A DNA stretch of 64,000 nucleotides from Vulcanimicrobiota bacterium (lineage in GTDB: Bacteria; Vulcanimicrobiota; Vulcanimicrobiia; Vulcanimicrobiales; Vulcanimicrobiaceae): assembly GCA_963812155.1 (NCBI GenBank), contig CAWETW010000001.1, positions 736,001 to 800,000 of the forward strand, given 5' to 3'. Under the pieces are notes generated by a model. That model worked only from the letters and a program-made list of their open reading frames with translations. It ran no database searches and was not told the origin of the DNA. The translations under genes and the position numbers were made by a program. Numbering within the stretch: position 1 is the first letter of the stretch; every line of letters begins with the position of its first letter. Of the stretch, positions 22,847-42,612 are shown piece after piece.

Positions 22847-23852
22847 TCAGAGCGACTCGGGAGGATCGACGGCGACGCCGACGGGAGACCCGCCTGACGT
22901 TGTTACGTTGCCAACATGCGTGCAGGCCTGCCCGTTACCGCCGCCCGCCGGGTACTTGAATTCCTTTACAACGCCGAGATTCGCCTCGGCCACGAATACG
23001 CGGGTCTCTTTGCGATTGAGATCCATGCCGACGGGACGCCCCGCAACGGTGCATTTCCCTGACGGGGTCCCAAATGAGGGCGGCGCGTACGTGAGTACGC
23101 TTCCGAGTTGGTCGTCGATCAGAACGACGTGCTCACCACCCACGGATCGCACGCCACCGGGAAAACCAAATACCGCGCCGGTGTTCGTGAATGACGTACA
23201 GACGCCGGCGACGCACTTACCCACCCACAGCCCGGGAGTGCCATCACTGTAGTAGAGGGTACCATCTTTTTGGATCGTCAAAGAGTAAATCGGTTGAGCG
23301 TTCGCGTTCTGATAGTTCGCGACCAACGCACCAGACGATTTTTTCCACACCGAGATCGACCCAGATGAGCAGAAGTGTGCTAAAAGGTTCGAAGCAATGA
23401 CGTATCCATCGTCGGAGACCGTGACGTCACCAGGCACTTCGTCACCGCATTTCGCGTCGACGTAGGTCTTGAACGGGCTCGTGCCGCCCCGATGATACGC
23501 CTCGACGTTGGGCGACGGCGGTCCCTTGGTCGCGTAAAGGTTGCCTGATGAGACCATCAGACCTCCCGCGCTATTGAATCCTGTCAGAATCCCACATGGC
23601 GCCTGACCGGCAAGATTACCGGCAAAAATGTTCACCGTACCATCGGCTTGATCGGAGACATAGACCAGTAGTCCCGTCGCCGGACACGTGTTGAACCCCA
23701 CGCCGTGATAGCCGGTGCGAAAAATAATTCCCTCGCGTGCGGCTCTGGGCCGCGAACGGCACTGGCGCTTGTGTCGGGCCGCTGGAACAACCCGCCCCGA
23801 AAGCTACCGCCGCTGTGGCAAACGCGATCTGGATCGCCTTGAGAGAACGCAT
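22847..23852 (-). CDS. Beta-propeller lipoprotein; +1 frameshift between ~23710 and 23770
   Basis: AAGGAG RBS; signal peptide MRSLK...GAGC lies in one frame and the body (LLVYVSDQ...) in the next. Confidence 0.7.
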
Positions 23853-24113
23853 CGCGAGTCTCCTTCCGAAGCGCGTCGGCGGCATCATTTCTCAAAACGC
23901 AAACTGCGAACCTTGTTTTATGACGGAGCGAAACGGATACGCAGCGCTGAGCATAGATCTGCCGTCATAAAAAGGCCGCAGATCGCGCGCCTTATCTTCG
24001 CACAACGAAGCGCGGCCTAGGCTCGTTCCACGAGCGGGGCTTAGTTCCATCGCGGCGCTACGGCTCGGGCAGCGGCTCAGCTGGCAGTCAATTCGCAATG
24101 CGTTTCCGTTTAT

Positions 24114-25076
24114 TTATCTCTCTTCGTGACTGAGCGCCATACCTTGAGAGTAGTCCAATCCGGATTCGATCTTCACCCGAAATTCGCCCAGAGGATAGGG
24201 GCTGATGTAGACGTTATGGTCGGCGTAATCGGAGTAATAGATGTTTCGTTGGTTTCCACCAAGAACGATTTGCGTAGCGCAACAGCCGGTGTTCACGACT
24301 TGGGACGGATGGTTCTTTCCAGGCGGATACACGTCGACGGTCCCGTTGCCGCTCTCGACGATGATAATGTTTCCGGAGCGATCGATCTGCAAGCCTTGCG
24401 GCGACGAGACGTGCATACCTAAGATCCGGCCGTTCGTCGAGTGCGGAGCAAACTCTTCGATGCTATCTACCGACCGGCCGCGATAGGCTACATACAGATT
24501 CGATGCCTGGTCGAAGTTTATACCGTCAGCTTCGTGACCCGGGGTCTTTATCGTAACATCCGGCGTCGTTTGCTGCCGCGGATATTCGGTGACGGTCCCG
24601 TTGCGGTTCGCAGCGTACACCCTGCCCGAATGATCGGTTACGACGTACAACGGACTGGCCGTGTCGGTGTAGGTAATCCAAGGATGTATCGTGCCCGGCC
24701 GATACGCCGTTATCGTAGTAGTGTTCGCGACGTACAGACCGCCTTTCGCATCCGCAAAGAGCCCGTATGCACCAGCAACACCGTCGGTAATTGCTCCGAC
24801 AGGTTTGGCATCTTTCTCTCGGAAGATTGCGACTTGGTTGCCGCCGGCAACATAGACGAGCGCTCCTGTTGCGTTTTTCGCGTCCAGCCAACCGCGCGGC
24901 TTTGCCCCGCGACTGGGACGCTCTAGCAGAGTGGGCGATGGCCTCGGAACGACGCTTGAACTGAGTAGCGACGATTGAGAGTCGGATGAGCCTATCGGTG
25001 TCGAGACGGTCGAAGTGCAAGCGGTCGATGCAAGCATCCCGGCTCCCATCGCAAGCAAAGCGAGTATTCTGCGCAT
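24114..25076 (-). CDS. NHL-like beta-propeller lipoprotein
   Basis: GGAGG RBS; STAC lipobox; GLFADAKGGLYVAN, GINFDQASNLYV, GLQIDRSGNII. Confidence 0.75.
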   Translation of the reverse strand: MRRILALLAMGAGMLASTACTSTVSTPIGSSDSQSSLLSSSVVPRPSPTLLERPSRGAKPRGWLDAKNATGALVYVAGGNQVAIFREKDAKPVGAITDGVAGAYGLFADAKGGLYVANTTTITAYRPGTIHPWITYTDTASPLYVVTDHSGRVYAANRNGTVTEYPRQQTTPDVTIKTPGHEADGINFDQASNLYVAYRGRSVDSIEEFAPHSTNGRILGMHVSSPQGLQIDRSGNIIIVESGNGTVDVYPPGKNHPSQVVNTGCCATQIVLGGNQRNIYYSDYADHNVYISPYPLGEFRVKIESGLDYSQGMALSHEER

Positions 25077-25214
25077 AAAATCCCCCTCCAATCGCAAGGA
25101 GCAGCCAAAAGCGCTTAGGCGTCTTGCAAGGCCGTTCCTACGATGGAACTCGGGGAATGTCACCGAACGTGTAGCTCGTGGTCTCGAACGCCGTTCACGC
25201 TTTATTTTTCTAAG

Positions 25215-25232
25215 GATCTAAGAATGAAGACT
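25215..25232 (+). repeat. 18-bp direct repeat, copy 1 (GATCTAAGAATGAAGACT), containing the ATG of the following gene
   Basis: Identical to 26280-26297. Confidence 0.9.
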
Positions 25233-26279
25233 CTAAACACCTTTGTTGCTGCGTTACTGACCGCGGCGCTCTTGGCCGCATGCAGCGGTCGCGGCGTTTT
25301 GATGCCGACCGGTACATCGGCGATACCTTCGAATCGCCAGGCTGCCATCGCGACAAATAGCGGTGGCAGCACGGCATTGTATGTTTCAGGAAGCGGTGGC
25401 ACCGCGATCTTCGCAGCCGGCGGAGCTAAGTACCTTCGAAAGATTAGACCCAAGAGTGGTGCGGTAGCGACGGATCGCCAAGGCCATCTCTATGTTGCCG
25501 GCGAGACAGCGGCCGCGGTAGATGTCTATGAAAATCGCGGAGCTAAGCTCGCCTGGACGGTTCATGCGAAGCCCTATTATCCACGCCTGCTCGTGCTTGA
25601 TGACTCGGGCGATCTCTACTTACACTGCGGAGATCGTAACCTGTGCGAATATGGTCCGCGCAACAAGGGACTCGTTCGGCAATTTCGTGGATACGGTACT
25701 CTATTTGCGCTAGACACCGGAGGCAATCTCTACCTTGCAACAGGATTTAACTCCGTTGCCGTTTATGCACCGGGAAGTACCTCGCCCGAGCGGACTATCA
25801 CAAGCGGCATCGCAGGCCCCGAGGCGCTCGCCTTGGACTTACAAGGGAACCTCTACGTCGCAAATGCATATGTCGGTTCACAACCATCCCAGAACGTCAC
25901 AGTGTACGCTCCTGGTGGAAGTTCACCAATACGGACAATTACTGCCGGCCTTACGATACCGTACGCTATGACTACGGATAGCGCGGGAAATCTCTACGTA
26001 CTAAACTCGTGCGTGAATCGCGGTGGCTGTACAAACGATCAAGATAGTGTTGCTGTGTATAGTCCCGGTACCAATACGCCTCTGCATGTCGTTAGCCAGG
26101 GTCTCGACTTTCCCGTAACACTTGCTGTCGACGGGTCAAGCAATCTCTACGTTGCAAATAATGGCAATTACCCAACCGACCGTGGCAGCGTTACCGTGTA
26201 TGGCTCCGGAAGCTATTCACTCATTCGCACGGTTACGCATGGCATCGAATATCCAGCTTTCCTCGCGCTCGGCTCCTAA
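25224..26279 (+). CDS. NHL-repeat beta-propeller lipoprotein
   Basis: Lipobox LAAC; repeated ALD..GNLYVAN...V.VYAPG units. Confidence 0.85.
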   Translation: MKTLNTFVAALLTAALLAACSGRGVLMPTGTSAIPSNRQAAIATNSGGSTALYVSGSGGTAIFAAGGAKYLRKIRPKSGAVATDRQGHLYVAGETAAAVDVYENRGAKLAWTVHAKPYYPRLLVLDDSGDLYLHCGDRNLCEYGPRNKGLVRQFRGYGTLFALDTGGNLYLATGFNSVAVYAPGSTSPERTITSGIAGPEALALDLQGNLYVANAYVGSQPSQNVTVYAPGGSSPIRTITAGLTIPYAMTTDSAGNLYVLNSCVNRGGCTNDQDSVAVYSPGTNTPLHVVSQGLDFPVTLAVDGSSNLYVANNGNYPTDRGSVTVYGSGSYSLIRTVTHGIEYPAFLALGS

Positions 26280-26297
26280 GATCTAAGAATGAAGACT
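26280..26297 (+). repeat. 18-bp direct repeat, copy 2, immediately after the stop codon
   Basis: Identical to 25215-25232. Confidence 0.9.
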
Positions 26298-26442
26298 TAC
26301 TTCCTATGAAGCGCCAGTTCATCTTAGAGCCCGAATGGCGCTCGGTTCCATCGCGGCGCCAAGCTTGCGCTGCCTCCGAGCCACGGCCCCCGGGCAGTCC
26401 AGACGGACTTAGGCGAATCACACTCGGAGGCTTGGCAGCGGC

Positions 26443-26476
26443 TGTCGAACGTCCTGGCACGTTATCTTCTTCGGAG
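26443..26476 (+). repeat. 34-bp imperfect direct repeat, copy 1 (contains AACGT-N6-ACGTT and the RBS)
   Basis: 30/34 identical to 27486-27519. Confidence 0.85.
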
Positions 26477-26484
26477 GCCAACAA

Positions 26485-27456
26485 TTGACGACTCTATTTC
26501 GCCTCGTGGCAGCGTCACTTAGTGCGGCGCTCTTGGCCGCGTGCGGAAACCTAGCTTTCACATCGCCCCCGTTCAGTGGGCTGCCGTCGCATCGTGAGGC
26601 TCCAAAGTCGACGGGATTGCGGGCGAGTCGTTCTTGGATGGATTTCCGAGCCCAAAGTGGCGATCTGTTGTACGTGGCGGATCAAGCTTACGCCGTAGTC
26701 TATGTCTACTCGTATCCGCACGCCAGGTTGGTCGGAGAGCTTACTGGGTTTGCCGATCCAACAGGCGCGTGCGTTGACGCAAAAGGCGACGTCTTTATTG
26801 CCAACTACAATGCCTCAGACATCATTGAGTACGCACACGGGGGCACGAAGCCGAAGGCAGTCCTGAGCGACTCAGGGCATCCGTACGGCTGCTCTGTAAA
26901 TGGACTGAATGGGGATCTTGCAGTCAGTAATTGGACACAGAAAGGTTCGCAATCTGGCGAAATCGCCGTATACACGGCTGCAAAGGGAAAGCCGAAGCTT
27001 TTAGCCGACCCGAATTTCAATTACGTGCTCTTTGATAGTTACGACAAGTTGGGAAATCTATTCGTGGATTCAATCTCCCATGATGGTGTGTTTTTGTACT
27101 CAGAGCTTCCTAAAGGCTCATCGAAGTTCAAAGATATTTCCCTCGACAAGCACGTAAACTATCCCGGCGGAGTGCAATGGGATGGTATCCATATGGCGAT
27201 TGAAAACGTTGGTCCATCTGAGAACGACATTTATAGGTCAACGGGAGGCAAAGTAATCGGAACCACGCATCTTGACGGATCGTGCGACGCCTTGGATTTT
27301 TTCATCGAAGGTGGCATTACGATTGTTTCAGACCCAAGTTGTAACAAGATTCGCCTATATCACTATCCGAGCGGAGGACACGCGATAACAACAATTACGC
27401 TGCCTTCGCAAAGCGCTCCAATTGGCGTCGTAGTTAGTCCCACCGCCACTCCCTAG
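26485..27456 (+). CDS. Beta-propeller lipoprotein (SWM-type, paralog of 6663-7697)
   Basis: TTG start after GGAGG; lipobox LAAC; SWM...DLLYVAD, GACVDAKGDVFI, EYAHGGT, PGGVQWDG. Confidence 0.8.
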   Translation: MTTLFRLVAASLSAALLAACGNLAFTSPPFSGLPSHREAPKSTGLRASRSWMDFRAQSGDLLYVADQAYAVVYVYSYPHARLVGELTGFADPTGACVDAKGDVFIANYNASDIIEYAHGGTKPKAVLSDSGHPYGCSVNGLNGDLAVSNWTQKGSQSGEIAVYTAAKGKPKLLADPNFNYVLFDSYDKLGNLFVDSISHDGVFLYSELPKGSSKFKDISLDKHVNYPGGVQWDGIHMAIENVGPSENDIYRSTGGKVIGTTHLDGSCDALDFFIEGGITIVSDPSCNKIRLYHYPSGGHAITTITLPSQSAPIGVVVSPTATP

Positions 27457-27895: not shown

Positions 27896-27924
27896 TTGAC
27901 GCTGGACCCCGTGCGTGCTATGGT
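27896..27924 (+). promoter_or_regulatory. Sigma70-type promoter of the met leader and operon
   Basis: TTGACG-N17-TATGGT with an extended TG; the leader ATG lies 7 nt downstream. Confidence 0.75.
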
Positions 27925-27931
27925 TTCGGCC

Positions 27932-28018
27932 ATGTCCCGGAAGCCAGTTTGTATGTTTCGTCCCATGTGCCGAATGCAGATGCATTTGGTGAGGGTCGGC
28001 ATGGAGCACGCTACGTAG
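27932..28018 (+). CDS. Met-rich leader peptide MSRKPVCMFRPMCRMQMHLVRVGMEHAT (putative attenuator leader)
   Basis: 28-codon ORF with 6 Met and 2 Cys, located between a promoter and a terminator upstream of the Met biosynthesis genes. Confidence 0.8.
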   Translation: MSRKPVCMFRPMCRMQMHLVRVGMEHAT

Positions 28019-28044
28019 TTTCCAAAATCGTTTCTTGCTTTACG

Positions 28045-28081
28045 CGCCCCTCGTCGAATGACGTAAGGGGCGTTTTTATTT
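28045..28081 (+). terminator. Intrinsic terminator (attenuator) upstream of hom
   Basis: CGCCCCT-CGTC-gaat-GACG-ta-AGGGGCG followed by TTTTTATTT. Confidence 0.85.
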
Positions 28082-28115
28082 CGTCGCTTTCCCATCTCAC
28101 CAGGAGGCTCGAAAC

Positions 28116-29246
28116 ATGAACGTGACCGTCGGAATCGGATTGCTCGGTTGCGGCACCGTCGGCTCGGAGGTCGCCGATCGTTTGGAGCGCGAGCGCGACG
28201 CGATCGAGCGCGCCGCCGGCGTGCGCTACGAACTCTGCGGCGTCGCGATTCGCGATGCGGCCAAAGACCGCCCGGATTCACTCGAGCGCCGCTTATTCAC
28301 GCGCGACGCGGTCGCGCTGGTCGACGATGCACGGGTGGATCTGGTCGTCGAACTCATCGGCGGCTCGACCGAGGCGGCCGGTTTGGTCGAGCGGGCGCTG
28401 GATCGCGGACGGCACGTCGTCACGGCAAACAAAGACGTCATCGGCACGCAAGGGCCGCGCTTGCGCGCGCTGGCGGCAACGCGCGCGGTCGCATTACGTT
28501 TCGATGCGGCGGTGGCCGGAGCAATTCCGCTGCTGCGGACGATCGGCGAAGCCCTAGCGGGCGACGAAGTGCGAGCGGTTGCAGGCATTCTCAACGGCAC
28601 GTGCGGTTTTATCCTCGAGGCGATGGAACGCGGTGCGTCGTTCGAAGAGGCGCTGGCGTGCGCGCGCGATTTAGGCTACGCGGAATCGGACGCGTCGAAC
28701 GACGTCGAAGGCACCGACGCCGCGCACAAACTCGCGGCGATCGCGCAACTTGCGTTCGGCGTCGCCGTCATTTCGCCGCGCATTCGGCGGCGCGGCATTC
28801 TCGGTGTTTCGGCACGCGATATCGAAGCGGCCGCAGCGAGCGGCATGCGGTTGCGTCTGCTCGCCGCGACGGCGCGCACGGACCGCGGCATCGCGGCGGA
28901 AGTTGCGGTCGCCCTCGTTCCGCGCGAGCACGAGTTTGCGCGCACGGAAGGTGCCGAGAACGTCGCGCACGTCGTCGCGCGCGATGCGGGGCGGCTCTCG
29001 CTGCGCGGCAGCGGCGCGGGTGGGCGCGCCACCGCATCGGCCGTGCTGGGCGACGTGGTCGCGGTGCTGCGCGAACTCGGCGAACGCCGCGATTTCTCGG
29101 CACGGCAACGCTTCCCGGCGCTCGAGCCCGCGCTCGACGTCGCGCCGTTCTTCGAACGGCACCGGCGGCTCGACGCGTTGCCCGATTTTCCGGTGTGGGA
29201 CGACGAGGCGATCGCCGGCGCGCTGCGGCCGGAAGCGTGCGCGTGA
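28116..29246 (+). CDS. hom: Homoserine dehydrogenase
   Basis: IGLLGCGTVG, HVVTANK, GILNGTC, LGYAESD...DVEGTDAAHKL, GSGAGGRATASAV; AGGAGG RBS. Confidence 0.93.
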   Translation: MNVTVGIGLLGCGTVGSEVADRLERERDAIERAAGVRYELCGVAIRDAAKDRPDSLERRLFTRDAVALVDDARVDLVVELIGGSTEAAGLVERALDRGRHVVTANKDVIGTQGPRLRALAATRAVALRFDAAVAGAIPLLRTIGEALAGDEVRAVAGILNGTCGFILEAMERGASFEEALACARDLGYAESDASNDVEGTDAAHKLAAIAQLAFGVAVISPRIRRRGILGVSARDIEAAAASGMRLRLLAATARTDRGIAAEVAVALVPREHEFARTEGAENVAHVVARDAGRLSLRGSGAGGRATASAVLGDVVAVLRELGERRDFSARQRFPALEPALDVAPFFERHRRLDALPDFPVWDDEAIAGALRPEACA

Positions 29247-30244
29247 TGCGCGAGGAAACGATCGGCATCGGCCCGTTCACGCTCGACAGCGGCGACGTTC
29301 TTGCCGCGGTCGAACAGCGCGTGACGATTTACGGCACGCCGAACGCCGAACGTTCCAACCTCGTGCTCGTCACGCACGCGCTCACGGGTTCGAGCCGCGC
29401 CGCAGAGTGGTGGCCGGGCATCGTGGGCGACGGCGGCCTCTTCGACCCGCGGCACTGGTGCGTCATCGGCATCAACGCGCTGGGAAGTTGCTACGGTTCG
29501 ACCGGCCCTGCGTCGCCGGCGCCCGGCGATCTTCCGTACGGCGCTGCGTTTCCGCGCGCCGGCGTGGGCGACTTCGTGCGCGCGCAAATGCGGGCGCTCG
29601 ATCGCCTCGGATTCGAGGATCTTGCGTTCGTTATCGGTGGTTCGCTCGGCGGAATGCAGGCATTGCAGTGGGCGCTCGCGGCGCCGCAACGCGTTCGCCA
29701 TGCCATCATCGTCGGAGCGCACGACGGTTTGCATGCGATGAGCCTCGCACTCTGCGCGCTGCAGCGCGAGGCGCTGTTGCTCGACCCCGCCGGCGGGTTG
29801 CGGCTGGCGCGCAAGATTGCGATGCTGACGTACAAAAGCGCCCCGCTGCTCGACGCGCGCCACGGCCGGCGCGCGGATCGACGGCAGTCCGATCGCTTCG
29901 ATGTCGAGGGCTATCTCGACGTGCAAGCCGATCGGCTGGCGGCGCGGATGGACGCTCGAAGTTACGACGTGCTCACGCAGGCGATGATGACGTTCGACGT
30001 ACGCGACGTCCACACGAACGGCTTCACGGGCCGCCGGCCGGCGCTGACGTTCGTCGGCATCGGGTCGGATTGGCTCTTTCCCGCGGACGAAGTGCGCGAA
30101 GCGGCGGAACGATTTGCCGCGCGCGGGTTCGACGCACGCTACCTGTATCTCGAGTCTCAGCACGGCCACGATGCATTCTTGGCCGACGCGGCGGCACTAC
30201 GCGCACTGCTCGAACCGGTCATCGCGGAGTGCGGCGTATGCTGA
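29246..30244 (+). CDS. metX: Homoserine O-acyltransferase (MetX family)
   Basis: HALTGS, NALGSCYGSTGP, IGGSLGGMQ, SDWLFP, HGHDAFL; TGATG overlap with hom. Confidence 0.9.
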   Translation: MREETIGIGPFTLDSGDVLAAVEQRVTIYGTPNAERSNLVLVTHALTGSSRAAEWWPGIVGDGGLFDPRHWCVIGINALGSCYGSTGPASPAPGDLPYGAAFPRAGVGDFVRAQMRALDRLGFEDLAFVIGGSLGGMQALQWALAAPQRVRHAIIVGAHDGLHAMSLALCALQREALLLDPAGGLRLARKIAMLTYKSAPLLDARHGRRADRRQSDRFDVEGYLDVQADRLAARMDARSYDVLTQAMMTFDVRDVHTNGFTGRRPALTFVGIGSDWLFPADEVREAAERFAARGFDARYLYLESQHGHDAFLADAAALRALLEPVIAECGVC

Positions 30245-31416
30245 CCGCTGCCAAGCCTGCGACGGCGCGCCGGGGATTTTCTACGCGCGCGATTTGGAGC
30301 GGCCAGGAACCGTGCGCGGCAACCGGCGCGACGATCATCCCCGTCTATCAAACGGCGACGTTCACGCTTCCGGAAGTCGGCGTTTCCAAGGGATTCGACT
30401 ACTCGCGTTCGGGAAATCCGACGCGCTTAGCGCTGGAACGGCAGATTACGTCGCTGGAAGAAGGCGCGTGCGCGAGCGCGTTTGGTTCGGGAATGGCGGC
30501 AGTTGCGGGCGCGTTGTCGCTGTTGCGTTGCGGCGACCATCTCCTCGCGGCGCGCGACATCTACGGTGGAACGCACCGGCTCTTCACGCAAGTGCTGCCC
30601 GCGTACGGGATCGACGTCACGTTCGTCGACACGACCGACGTTGACGCAACGTGGGCGCGAGCGGGGCCGAACACGCGGATGCTGTGGCTGGAAACGCCGA
30701 GCAATCCGGCACTGAGCCTCTCCGACATTGCGGCGTTCGCGCGCACGAAACCACGCCGCGTGCTGGTTGCGGTCGACAACACGTTTGCGTCGCCGTTTCT
30801 GCAGCGTCCGCTGGTGCTCGGCGCCGATCTCGTGGTGCATTCGACGACGAAATACATCTGCGGGCACAGCGACGTTGTCGGCGGCGCTGTGGTTGCAGCC
30901 GACGATGCGGTCGGCGAGCGGATTGCGTTCCATCAAAATGCGGTCGGCGCCGTGCCCGGCCCGTGGGACGCGTACCTCACGCTGCGCGGGGTAAAAACGC
31001 TAGCGCTGCGGATGCTCGTGCACTCGCGCAACGCGCAGCGCATCGCGGAGTTTCTTTCCGCGCGCAACGACGTCGCGGAGGTTCGGTATCCCGGATTGCC
31101 GGAGCACCCGCAGCACGATCTCGCGCGGCGGCAGATGGAGGGCTTCGGCGGCATCGTGACGTTTCGTCCCGCCGGCGGAACGCGGCGCGCGCGCGCCGTC
31201 GCACAAGCGACGTCGGTATTTACGCTCGCCGTGTCGCTCGGCGGCGTCGAGTCGCTGGTGTGCAGCCCGGCAGTGATGACGCACGCATCGCTCACGCCGC
31301 ACGAGCGCGAGCAACTCGGCATTACCGAGGATTTGCTGCGGCTCTCAGTGGGCATCGAAGACTCCGACGATCTCATCGCGGATTTGTCGGCGGCGCTCGA
31401 CGCGGCCGATTGCTAG
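30238..31416 (+). CDS. metB: Cystathionine gamma-synthase/lyase (PLP-dependent transsulfuration enzyme)
   Basis: YSRSGNPT, FGSGMAA, LETPSNP, VDNTFASP, HSTTKY.GHSD, SLGGVESL, RLSVGIE; metB preferred from operon context. Confidence 0.85.
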   Translation: MLTAAKPATARRGFSTRAIWSGQEPCAATGATIIPVYQTATFTLPEVGVSKGFDYSRSGNPTRLALERQITSLEEGACASAFGSGMAAVAGALSLLRCGDHLLAARDIYGGTHRLFTQVLPAYGIDVTFVDTTDVDATWARAGPNTRMLWLETPSNPALSLSDIAAFARTKPRRVLVAVDNTFASPFLQRPLVLGADLVVHSTTKYICGHSDVVGGAVVAADDAVGERIAFHQNAVGAVPGPWDAYLTLRGVKTLALRMLVHSRNAQRIAEFLSARNDVAEVRYPGLPEHPQHDLARRQMEGFGGIVTFRPAGGTRRARAVAQATSVFTLAVSLGGVESLVCSPAVMTHASLTPHEREQLGITEDLLRLSVGIEDSDDLIADLSAALDAADC

Positions 31417-31542: not shown

Positions 31543-32583
31543 TTGCACATCTATAAGAAGCGTTCTTTCGCTTGGGCGCCGGCGCTCGGCCCGGCGTTCC
31601 TTCTTCTCGCAGCCTGTTCCAATTCCGGATCCGCGCAGTTGCCGGCAACCGGTAACGCGGGCGGCATGCCGTCGCAATTCGTTTCGATGGACGATCGCGC
31701 GCCGGCCATGCGGCCGAATGCGACCGGGAAACTGGTTTTCGTCGATCCAATGGTGGTCGCGGCGCAGGTGTACGTCGCTTCGTACGACGCGTCGGGCTCG
31801 ACGCCGGTGGACGACTACCATGCCAACGACTCGAAGAACAACGGTCACTTCTGCCAGATTAAATCGGTCGGTGAGGGCATCAACGCCCTCGGCGTCGATG
31901 CATCCGACGAACTGTGGGTGCCGCAAGGTCTCGATCTCAAATCCGGCAAGGCCGACATCGTGTCGTACGCTCCGAACTGCGGCGCCGAAGGTACCACGCT
32001 CAGCGATGCTAAGGGCCAACCCGCCGGCATCGCATTCGCACCCGACGGAACGCGCTACGTCAACAACATCAACGGCCCGTCGAGTACGGCCGGCAACGTA
32101 GCTGTGTATCCGAAAGGCAAGACCAAGCCGACGCGCTTTCTTACCAACGCGCAGGTCTTCTACGCCAACGGAATCGGCGTCGATTCAAAAGGTAACGTCT
32201 ACCTTTCGTTTTTCTCGGCGGACAGCACGACCGGCGTGTTAAAGTTCAAAGGCGGTCAAATGCCGGGCACGCTGCTTGGGAAGATTAAAAACGGTGCACC
32301 GGGCGCGATCACGTTCGACAAGGCCGACAACCTCATCATTACCGACGATGCGGCGGTGACGCTCAACTTCTACGCGCCTCCGTACGACAAGGTGCCGAAA
32401 GTCTACCCGCTCCAGGGGCACTCGCCGCAGTGTTCGCTCAACCACGCGCAGACGAACTTAGCGTGCGGCGACAAGACCAATACCAGCGTCGACGTCTTCG
32501 CGTATCCGGCCGGAACCTATCTCTACAGCTTCAACAAAGGCCTGACGGCAACGGTCATCGGTACGGTTCAGGATCCTCCGTAA
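31543..32583 (+). CDS. Beta-propeller lipoprotein
   Basis: TTG start after GAGGAG; lipobox LAAC; GIAFAPDG, GIGVDSKGNVYL, ITFDKADNLI. Confidence 0.75.
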   Translation: MHIYKKRSFAWAPALGPAFLLLAACSNSGSAQLPATGNAGGMPSQFVSMDDRAPAMRPNATGKLVFVDPMVVAAQVYVASYDASGSTPVDDYHANDSKNNGHFCQIKSVGEGINALGVDASDELWVPQGLDLKSGKADIVSYAPNCGAEGTTLSDAKGQPAGIAFAPDGTRYVNNINGPSSTAGNVAVYPKGKTKPTRFLTNAQVFYANGIGVDSKGNVYLSFFSADSTTGVLKFKGGQMPGTLLGKIKNGAPGAITFDKADNLIITDDAAVTLNFYAPPYDKVPKVYPLQGHSPQCSLNHAQTNLACGDKTNTSVDVFAYPAGTYLYSFNKGLTATVIGTVQDPP

Positions 32584-41376: not shown

Positions 41377-42612
41377 TTATCGCTCCTTCGACGTGGCAAA
41401 GTTTGGAACGCGCAGCGCTTCGCCGGTAAACGACGCCGCCTTCCGCAACGCTTCAACGCGATCGAGCCGTTCCCACGGCAGATCGAGATCGGGACGGCCG
41501 AAATGACCGTACGCGGCGGTTTGACGGTAGATCGGACGCCGCAACTTCAAATCGTGGATGATCGCGGCCGGACGCAGATCGAAGACGGCGGCAACCGCAC
41601 GCGCGATCGCGTCCTCCTCGATTTTTCCCGTGCCGAAGGTTTCGACGAGCACGTTCATCGGGTGGGCCACGCCGATCGCGTAGGCAACTTGCACCTCGCA
41701 TCGGTCGGCGAGCCCAGCCGCCACGACGTTTTTCGCGACCCAGCGCGCCGCGTACGCGGCCGAGCGATCGACCTTCGTGGGATCCTTGCCGGAGAACGCG
41801 CCGCCTCCGTGGCGCGCCATGCCGCCGTATGTGTCGGCGATGATCTTGCGTCCCGTCAAACCGGCATCGCCTTTCGGACCGCCGATGACGAAGCGTCCGG
41901 TGGGATTGACGTACACGCGCGTTTCGGAGTCGCGCAGCGACGACGGAACGACGTGATTGATGACCTTCTCCGTCACCTCGTTGCGAATCATCTCCAGCGG
42001 AATGTCGGGATCGTGCTGCGTCGAAACCACGATCGCGTCGACGCGCACCGGGCGGTCGCCCTCGTATTCGACCGTGACTTGCGACTTGCCGTCGGGCCGA
42101 AGATACGGAATGTCGCCGTTCTTGCGCACGGCCGCGAGCTGGCGCGTGAGATTGTGCGCGAGCACGATCGGGAGCGGCATGAGTTCGTTGGTTTCGCGGC
42201 AGGCGTACCCGAACATCATGCCCTGATCGCCCGCGCCGATTCGTTCGAACTCGTCGTCGTCGCCGCCCTTCGCCTCGAGCGACTTGTCGACACCCATCGC
42301 AATGTCGGGCGACTGTTCGTCGATCGAAATGTTCACGCCGCACGTTTCGGCGTCGAAGCCAACCGCCGATTTCGTGTAGCCGATCTCGCGAATCGTCTCG
42401 CGCACGATGCGGGGAATGTCGATGTACGTTTTGGTCGTCACCTCACCCGCTAAGTGAATCTGTCCGGTAATCGCGAACGTCTCGACCGCAACGCGCGATT
42501 CGGGATCGTCTCGCAGCAGCGCGTCGAGCACCGCATCGGAGATTTGATCCGCGACCTTGTCGGGATGGCCTTCGGTTACCGATTCGCTGGTAAAGAACCG
42601 GCGGTACGCCAC
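41377..42612 (-). CDS. metK: S-adenosylmethionine synthetase
   Basis: [43 protein letters not shown]. Confidence 0.97.

Follow-up and report, generated by a model that had tools for sequence, protein, structure and literature searches.

A candidate leader-peptide attenuator with methionine and cysteine codons ahead of hom-metX-metB in a Vulcanimicrobiota bacterium

Methionine genes are textbook examples of control by repressors, SAM riboswitches or T-boxes, not by leader peptides. A short Met- and Cys-rich open reading frame (ORF) ahead of a hom-metX-metB operon, found in a window of 64,000 nucleotides (the whole stretch of DNA analysed) from an uncultured, soil-type Vulcanimicrobiota bacterium, raises the question of whether ribosomes translating a leader could govern such an operon. 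The operon is very probably preceded by a classical (trp/thr-type) ribosome-mediated transcription attenuator, which would read the supply of both Met-tRNA and Cys-tRNA. The locus has the sequence-level features of classical leader-peptide transcription attenuators, that is, ORF position, codon enrichment, terminator, antiterminator and placement of the control codons. At this level the attenuation reading of the first-pass annotation is upheld by a conserved Met/Cys ORF, a conserved terminator and antiterminator, and a lack of riboswitch matches.

Operon, promoter and leader ORF

The leader and the genes behind it are arranged as follows.

27896..27924, + strand: sigma-70-type promoter, with -35 box TTGACG (27896), a 17-nt spacer and an extended -10 box TG-N-TATGGT (27919-27924)
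27932..28018, + strand: leader ORF of 28 codons, apparently leaderless, its ATG following the -10 box by 7 nt, where transcription is expected to start
28116..29246, + strand: hom, homoserine dehydrogenase (NCBIfam, 356 bits, passing the cut-off of 205)
29246..30244, + strand: metX-like homoserine O-acyltransferase (best match NF001209, 290.8 bits, below the cut-off of 331)
30238..31416, + strand: metB-like cystathionine gamma-synthase (best match NF005871, 495.6 bits, below the cut-off of 513; the profile scan began at 30244, codon 3, and the start at 30238 is taken from the open frame)

The promoter as originally described (TTGACG-N17-TATGGT), the ATG 7 nt further on and the lack of a Shine-Dalgarno (SD)-like run between the -10 box and the ATG at 27932 are all present in the sequence. 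The same is true of the peptide, which reads MSRKPVCMFRPMCRMQMHLVRVGMEHAT, with Met at positions 1, 8, 12, 15, 17 and 24 and Cys at 7 and 13, and the ORF has no Pfam match. By itself the promoter match is within chance (1 found against 0.3 +/- 0.5 expected), and the case against chance comes from conservation in relatives. In a set of 47 leaders gathered with a strict pattern, which required a TTGAC-16/18-TA promoter and allowed an ATG spacing of 5-9 nt, the distance from the -10 box to the ATG is exactly 7 nt in 44, and it is because of this fixed spacing that the leader is called leaderless. An in-frame ATG at 27920 was rejected as the start, since it lies inside the -10 box and is missing from the -10 boxes of most relatives.

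The genome of the window (2.96 Mb, 84% complete) holds 21 short leaderless-like ORFs, two of them with a terminator-like hairpin behind, and the window's leader alone of these is Met-rich. A single copy of hom was found, and metH, metK and rho are also present. No thrB match was found in this 84% complete genome and, within the limits of that incompleteness, the lone hom probably serves methionine supply. The metK gene lies in the same window (41437-42597, - strand), directly behind another gene and without a leader; in this genome both metK and metH are inside operons, with no leader there. No further attenuators were found in the genome, and neither a trpE-type gene nor leuA above cut-off was found in it for leader inspection. 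The operon is flanked (22847-27456 and 31543-32583) by a run of 280-380 aa proteins with signal-peptide- or lipobox-like starts and repeat-like bodies, of which one has no NCBIfam match and one a weak ScyD/ScyE match.

Alternative helices and a model for their control

Four RNA elements within and behind the ORF bear on the question; the helices 1:2, 2:3 and 3:4 that they form exclude one another.

27969..27990, + strand: hairpin 1:2 (protector/pause), in which 27969-27977 pairs with 27982-27990 over codons 13-20, extendable to 27962-27995
27985..27998, + strand: segment 2, the antiterminator strand, with 13 of 14 pairs to 28045-28058 (helix 2:3)
28044..28081, + strand: intrinsic terminator 3:4, with a stem at 28044-28073 and a U-rich tail to 28081, its left arm being the antiterminator partner
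28082..28107, + strand: conserved pyrimidine-rich element ending in the hom SD, with a weak SD hairpin

The intrinsic terminator reported before hom is indeed there; its hairpin has a predicted energy of about -20 kcal/mol and a good U-tail behind it, and a simple terminator scan found none at the locus, presumably due to a 2-nt bulge in the hairpin. The antiterminator pairing first noticed, of GAGGGTCG (27991-27998) with 28045-28052 at 7 of 8 positions, extends to the 13 of 14 pairs of helix 2:3 listed above. In the window this helix is weak, with a duplex energy of -15.3 kcal/mol that 46% of codon shuffles equal. Hairpin 1:2 is predicted at -12.2 kcal/mol, with pair probabilities of at least 0.98 when the ORF is folded alone, and it hides the antiterminator strand. 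The protector originally proposed, CCATGTGCCGA (27963-27973) with TCGGCATGG (27996-28004), can pair (-8.4 kcal/mol) but loses to the hairpin of 27969-27977 with 27982-27990. As the main 1:2 helix, this CCATG/CATGG pairing is rejected, being paired in 206 of 370 alignment cells, and the conserved hairpin is that at 27969-27990.

These elements recur in related genomes. A hom gene was matched in 113 of 151 family genomes, a tally that includes three unpublished genomes, and 90 hom loci were analysed: 30 listed matches, the window's own among them, and 60 more with high scores. The unpublished genomes, the weaker matches and some that lie close to contig ends were excluded. At 46 of the 90, a promoter is followed by a Met/Cys-rich ORF of 22-29 codons, so that the Met-rich ORF which the first-pass annotation proposed to look for in orthologous leaders is kept there. 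Since the family genomes are kin, these counts are not independent events. The other 44 loci have no Met/Cys leader: six (L084-L089) carry a Thr/Ile-rich leader, six directly follow a thrB-like gene (L017 as tested, the others as judged by eye), one lies behind another gene, two are cut by contig ends, two have the promoter directly before the SD element and 27 have a short leader-free 5' region. These 27 (L038 and a subset of L043-L083) form a clade with a hom-(metY)-metX operon; in most of them the short 5' region is conserved and has a CCAC that pairs with a GGTGG SD ahead of a probable TTG start, and this region is possibly another small cis-element, Rfam being negative on the loci scanned. 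Public records titled Eremiobacterota or Vulcanimicrobiota, including Ca. Cybelea and Tumulicola, carry the same leader type before hom. Among the met operons tested, several relatives have hom-metY-metX and not the window's hom-metX-metB, and L037 (735-3089, - strand) has a single 785-aa frame that agrees first with the N-terminal part of metY and after it with metX, which may reflect a frameshift, a fusion or an assembly error. Three records titled Acidobacteriota (L110, L152 and L154) have leaders identical to those of the window's family, and their titles may be wrong.

Helix conservation was assessed on an alignment of 43 of the 46 leaders, from which the near-duplicates L004, L034 and L036 were dropped; the three helices were picked from the same alignment that tests them, which favours them. 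The terminator is paired in 92.3% of cells, with 8 of 10 pairs changed on both sides, and none of 500 shuffles reaches it on any of five measures. For the antiterminator, 80.2% of cells are paired and 4 of 8 pairs are changed on both sides, values for which 2 of 500 shuffles reach the pairing, none the covariation score and 86 the count of double-changed pairs. Hairpin 1:2 has 80.6% of cells paired and 4 of 7 pairs changed on both sides, the corresponding shuffle counts being 0, 0 and 177 of 500, and slid controls for all three helices give 29-65% paired. Compensatory stem changes, suggested as a check in the first-pass annotation, are thus present in both the terminator and the antiterminator, and poor U-tracts are seen in several relatives.

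The best duplex between ORF and terminator arm starts at codons 15-20 in all 47 leaders and, taking all loci, a leader's own partners average -24.1 kcal/mol as against -20.2 kcal/mol for others. Codon shuffles are beaten at the 5% level by the antiterminator duplex of 30 of 43 leaders, the window's own (0.46) not being one of them. When arms were swapped between nearest kin (23 disjoint pairs), the own arm was better in 8, the swapped arm in 10 and 5 were ties, giving no sign-test signal; the cognate advantage therefore partly reflects kinship. Antiterminator covariation is modest, being visible between lineages and not within them.

These helices suggest the following sequence of events. The transcript would begin at or beside the AUG, and a ribosome would load without an SD. 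When Met- and Cys-tRNA are plentiful, the ribosome would reach the stop codon and cover segment 2 (codons 19-23), the 3:4 terminator would form and transcription would end near 28080. When either of these tRNAs is scarce, the ribosome would wait at Met12, Cys13 or Met15 and break hairpin 1:2, leaving segment 2 free to pair with the left arm of the terminator, and RNA polymerase would read into hom-metX-metB. More tentatively, in many relatives the right arm set free in this way may also pair with the pyrimidine element and help to expose the hom SD, a step that is not predicted for the window's genome. Leader translation, stalling of the ribosome and termination are steps that we infer here from sequence.

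In a footprint model, in which RNA is assumed to be blocked to 10 nt past the A-site codon and is folded as far as the terminator loop, the predicted probability of the window's antiterminator is 0.83-0.85 when the ribosome stands at codons 10-15. It is 0.58-0.59 for codons 7-8 and 0.39 for codon 17, and from codon 19 onward it does not exceed 0.12; the zero value at the stop codon is a consequence of the mask. The stall zone first put at codons 8-17 is thus retained for codons 10-15, with Met12, Cys13 and Met15, which are effective in the model, while Met17 is marginal and Met24 has no effect. In the 47 leaders, under the same assumed footprint, 247 of the 274 Met/Cys codons fall in the permissive zone, compared with 745 of 1159 when all codons are counted. 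Met has its peaks 7 codons (28 of 43 leaders) and 10-11 codons before the antiterminator core, and Cys 6 (27 of 43) and 5 (23 of 43) codons before it. In the ribosome-free model the antiterminator still forms, with a mean probability of 0.57, and falls below half-maximum in only 16 of 47 leaders. Because it forms at equilibrium without a ribosome, the protector role of hairpin 1:2 would have to be kinetic, a matter of folding order. The distance of terminators from stop codons is used as a criterion for transcription-translation coupling, and by this criterion the gene-end terminators of a crude scan, 24 of 124 of which lie within 12 nt of the stop codon, are compatible with coupled transcription and translation.

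The same ribosome-stalling sensor might have its main output at translation, with access to the hom SD being switched and termination being secondary or Rho-dependent. The pyrimidine element could serve such a switch, as it can pair with the SD or, through its 5' part, with the right arm of the terminator (a 4:5 helix, paired in 89.9% of cells in relatives and weak in the window's genome). The SD is predicted to be more open in the antiterminated fold at 23 of 47 loci and less open at two, U-tracts are degenerate in some relatives, Rho is present in the genome and there is a Cys precedent in passages on the mycobacterial polycysteine leaders (bioRxiv 10.1101/834739). However, in the window predicted SD access is unchanged between the folds (0.24 vs 0.21) and the U-tail is a good one, the 4:5 helix shows no more covariation than shuffles do (65 of 500 reach it), and the element is also kept at loci without a leader (L027 and L042). 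A mainly translational output is therefore unlikely. At L027 and L042 the promoter abuts the pre-SD element, and the loop sequence of this element is conserved beyond what pairing explains.

Codon content, its spread and other sensors

The composition of the leaders bears on what is being sensed. Internal codons of the 46 leaders comprise 160 Met (14.1%) and 111 Cys (9.8%) out of 1133, against a hom background of 0.69% Met and 1.28% Cys in 14,712 codons. In the other two frames Met amounts to 0.7% and 0.6%, and frame +1 has 12.4% Cys but 50 stops. Cys codons are UGU 49 and UGC 62 in the leaders vs UGU 16 and UGC 172 in hom. In the alignment the peptide sequence drifts while its Met/Cys content stays, the start ATG being the sole invariant within the ORF, and gaps in the 5' half of the ORF are, by eye, mostly multiples of three. 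Cys codons form part of helix 1:2, and their conservation may be partly structural. The original label of a methionine attenuator holds as to the enrichment of Met, but Cys is about equally conserved, and "sulfur amino acid attenuator" fits better.

Leader codons also follow the gene downstream. A 21-nt motif that has the hom SD at its end was found at one place in the window's genome and in 80 of 301 genomes of the phylum, all of them from the window's family, with 0 for the reversed control. Among the 30 motif loci listed, 28 have a leaderless-type short ORF upstream, and the next gene, as judged from N-termini, is hom in 17, ssuA-like in 9, cysH-like in 2 and metB in 1, with 1 cut off; two of the ssuA-like genes, one cysH-like gene and the metB were tested. 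Met/Cys leaders thus also stand before ssuA. The leaders before cysH (cysH-cysC, L207) have 5 Cys and no internal Met; in the Cys-only leader at L207:1338-1530, which has a terminator, cysH seems to start at a non-standard ATC behind an SD. L082 comes from a genome in which hom lacks a leader; there a metB-like gene is preceded by a leader that contains 7 internal Met and has a terminator. The Thr/Ile(/Met) leaders of L084-L089 stand before stand-alone hom copies and have the same antiterminator/terminator design.

Threonine content may follow the same logic. Leader Thr in codons 2-16 averages 2.0 in 12 loci whose genome has thrB and one hom copy found; the average is 0.9 for the 30 loci where no thrB was matched and 0.75 for the 4 that have a second hom. 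This is suggestive of a link between leader Thr codons and a hom shared with thrB. That Thr content tracks a shared Thr/Met role of hom is not established, there being only 2 independent pairs on supported branches.

When all species genomes were scanned with a pattern into which Met/Cys content was built, 108 places were found, 80 of them with flanks, and over half look like chance. About 21 are leaders of the window's family. Six Acidobacteriota leaders stand before NirA/sulfite-reductase-like (two tested) or sulfate-binding (one tested) genes and have terminator-like hairpins, and a Chloroflexi record (L107) has a leaderless Thr/Met-rich leader before aspartate kinase. In a Chitinophagales record (L129), a SAM-I riboswitch (1281-1409, - strand, 78.7 bits) and a CoA-binding-domain gene are preceded, in tandem, by a leaderless Met/Cys mini-ORF that has a terminator-like hairpin of its own. 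In L108, L158 and L169 there are further Met/Cys mini-ORFs with such hairpins, and the downstream gene encodes a 123-126 aa protein without a Pfam match (Gammaproteobacteria) or a nucleotidyltransferase-domain protein (Anaerolineae).

It is conceivable, though we hold it to be somewhat doubtful, that one mobile leader module runs the sulfur amino acid metabolism of the family, ending transcription and hiding the ribosome-binding site, with its codons adapted to the operon behind it: Cys ahead of sulfate reduction genes, Met ahead of metB, Met and Cys together, and Thr in addition where hom also feeds threonine. On this tentative proposal, similar leaderless Met/Cys attenuators in Acidobacteriota, Chloroflexota and Bacteroidota would make up a widespread, uncatalogued, ribosome-read sulfur regulon.

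Two other kinds of sensor fare worse than a translational output. Arrest of the ribosome by its nascent peptide on a free metabolite (SAM, Met or Cys), or on a metal bound through Cys/Met, has parallels in TnaC, the plant CGS1 MTO1 region and copper-responsive uORFs. It would account for an M-C-x-M-Q-M-H stretch that recurs in about 20 of 46 leaders, for the use of both Gln codons (CAA 22, CAG 13) and for common Cys-x-x-Cys-like spacings. Nevertheless, past the start there is no invariant residue and whole subclades have no such motif, composition follows the pathway in Cys-only, Met-rich and Thr/Ile versions, there is no Pfam match, and the logic would be inverted, since stalling favours antitermination and arrest by the product would switch biosynthesis on; this explanation is very improbable. 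Equally improbable is a riboswitch or protein-bound RNA switch of a kind not yet described, for which the ORF would be incidental and the AUG/UGC triplets would be kept for structure or ligand binding: the Cys/Met codons do lie within a conserved hairpin, and in a lineage with no detected SAM-I or T-box an unknown sensor is conceivable, but the fixed 7-nt distance from promoter to ATG, the enrichment of Met in one frame only, the gaps in multiples of three and the scarcity of invariant RNA sequence outside the stems, together with negative Rfam scans, all speak against it.

A known riboswitch or T-box is rejected as the regulator on the Rfam-negative window, loci and related genomes. In agreement with the first-pass remark that no SAM-I or T-box signature is seen, no riboswitch was found in the window region (best E 0.31, far below gathering scores) or in 40 family loci (0 matches). 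The same scan does find SAM-I in 1 of 16 further loci (L129). Among related genomes, none of 41 gave a SAM-I match and none of 31 a T-box match, with positive controls detected; SAM classes other than SAM-I were scanned for on the fetched loci only. A ribosome-read attenuator, if true, would explain how sulfur metabolism is controlled in a family without detectable SAM-I or T-box RNAs.

Comparison with known leader peptides

A literature search, with most subscription journals outside its reach, brought up no Met-codon attenuator that has been tested by experiment, and nothing on Eremiobacterota. Vitreschak et al. are said to have predicted, in 2004, a Thr/Ile/Met attenuator of thrA in Pasteurellales, which resembles the window's leader in having Met codons before a homoserine dehydrogenase gene and differs in being mainly Thr/Ile and in belonging to Gammaproteobacteria.

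Closer in sensing cysteine are the mycobacterial polycysteine leaderless ORFs, the 'Cys ribulon', described in passages of bioRxiv 10.1101/834739 as tested by start-codon and recoding mutants; such leaders had been predicted earlier, in a section of PMC1262725. Like the window's leader, these ORFs are leaderless, sense Cys codons and stand before several sulfur-metabolism operons (bioRxiv 10.1101/834739, in part). The tested case described there is unlike the window, however, in that it works by SD occlusion and not by an intrinsic terminator, its Cys runs lie at the end of the ORF and Met is not the signal. In the window no consecutive Cys codons pair with the SD region, as a polycysteine translational attenuator would have them do; the peptide contains no Cys-Cys, and its Cys/Met codons are predicted to pair inside the ORF. 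For Actinobacteria, the relevant part of PMC1262725 describes Cys leaders that lack terminators and reports no conserved RNA element ahead of met operons, and the accessible portion of PMC2965389 mentions no Met leader.

Two putative systems come closer with respect to methionine. In Streptomyces lividans, metL before metNIQ is a leaderless ORF with clustered Met/Cys codons that is called a methionine-dependent leader peptide in a section of PMC8079986. It shares with the window's leader the design of a leaderless Met/Cys mini-ORF before a methionine gene, and it differs in that, according to the same section (PMC8079986), it precedes an importer, has no typical Rho-independent terminator and was annotated from RNA-seq. 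For Deinococcus deserti, Table S9 of PMC4007540 includes the putative leaders Deide_09379 (Met-tRNA ligase), Deide_16409 (Cys-tRNA ligase) and Deide_15739 (asd). These too are leaderless mini-ORFs with Met or Cys codons, with starts mapped at the AUG and transcription attenuation proposed, but they precede tRNA ligases or asd, are shorter and, in the parts concerned, are putative and come without helix analysis (PMC4007540). The initial statement that no characterised Met-codon attenuator is known therefore stands for tested cases, none having been found, and has to be qualified for putative Met leaders, some of which are already in print (PMC8079986 and PMC4007540, Table S9, both in part).

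The classical attenuators (trpL, hisL, leuL, thrL, pheL and ilvL), whose mechanism is summarised in passages of bioRxiv 10.1101/834739 and PMC4007540, remain the nearest model. As in these, the window has an ORF with codons of the pathway, helices 1:2, 2:3 and 3:4 and a U-tailed terminator before a biosynthetic operon, and its control codons stand a few codons before the antiterminator strand. Unlike these, it would sense Met and Cys codons, its ORF is apparently leaderless, its host belongs to Eremiobacterota, it may have an extra SD-level switch and it is known here from sequence alone. The surprise is limited, as the attenuation principle is old and putative Met leaders have already been annotated. 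The leader is also a 190-nt candidate Met/Cys biosensor. Overall, a complete trp-type Met/Cys attenuator that stands ahead of a met biosynthetic operon and occurs in dozens of natural variants would widen the range of amino acids that are sensed in this way.
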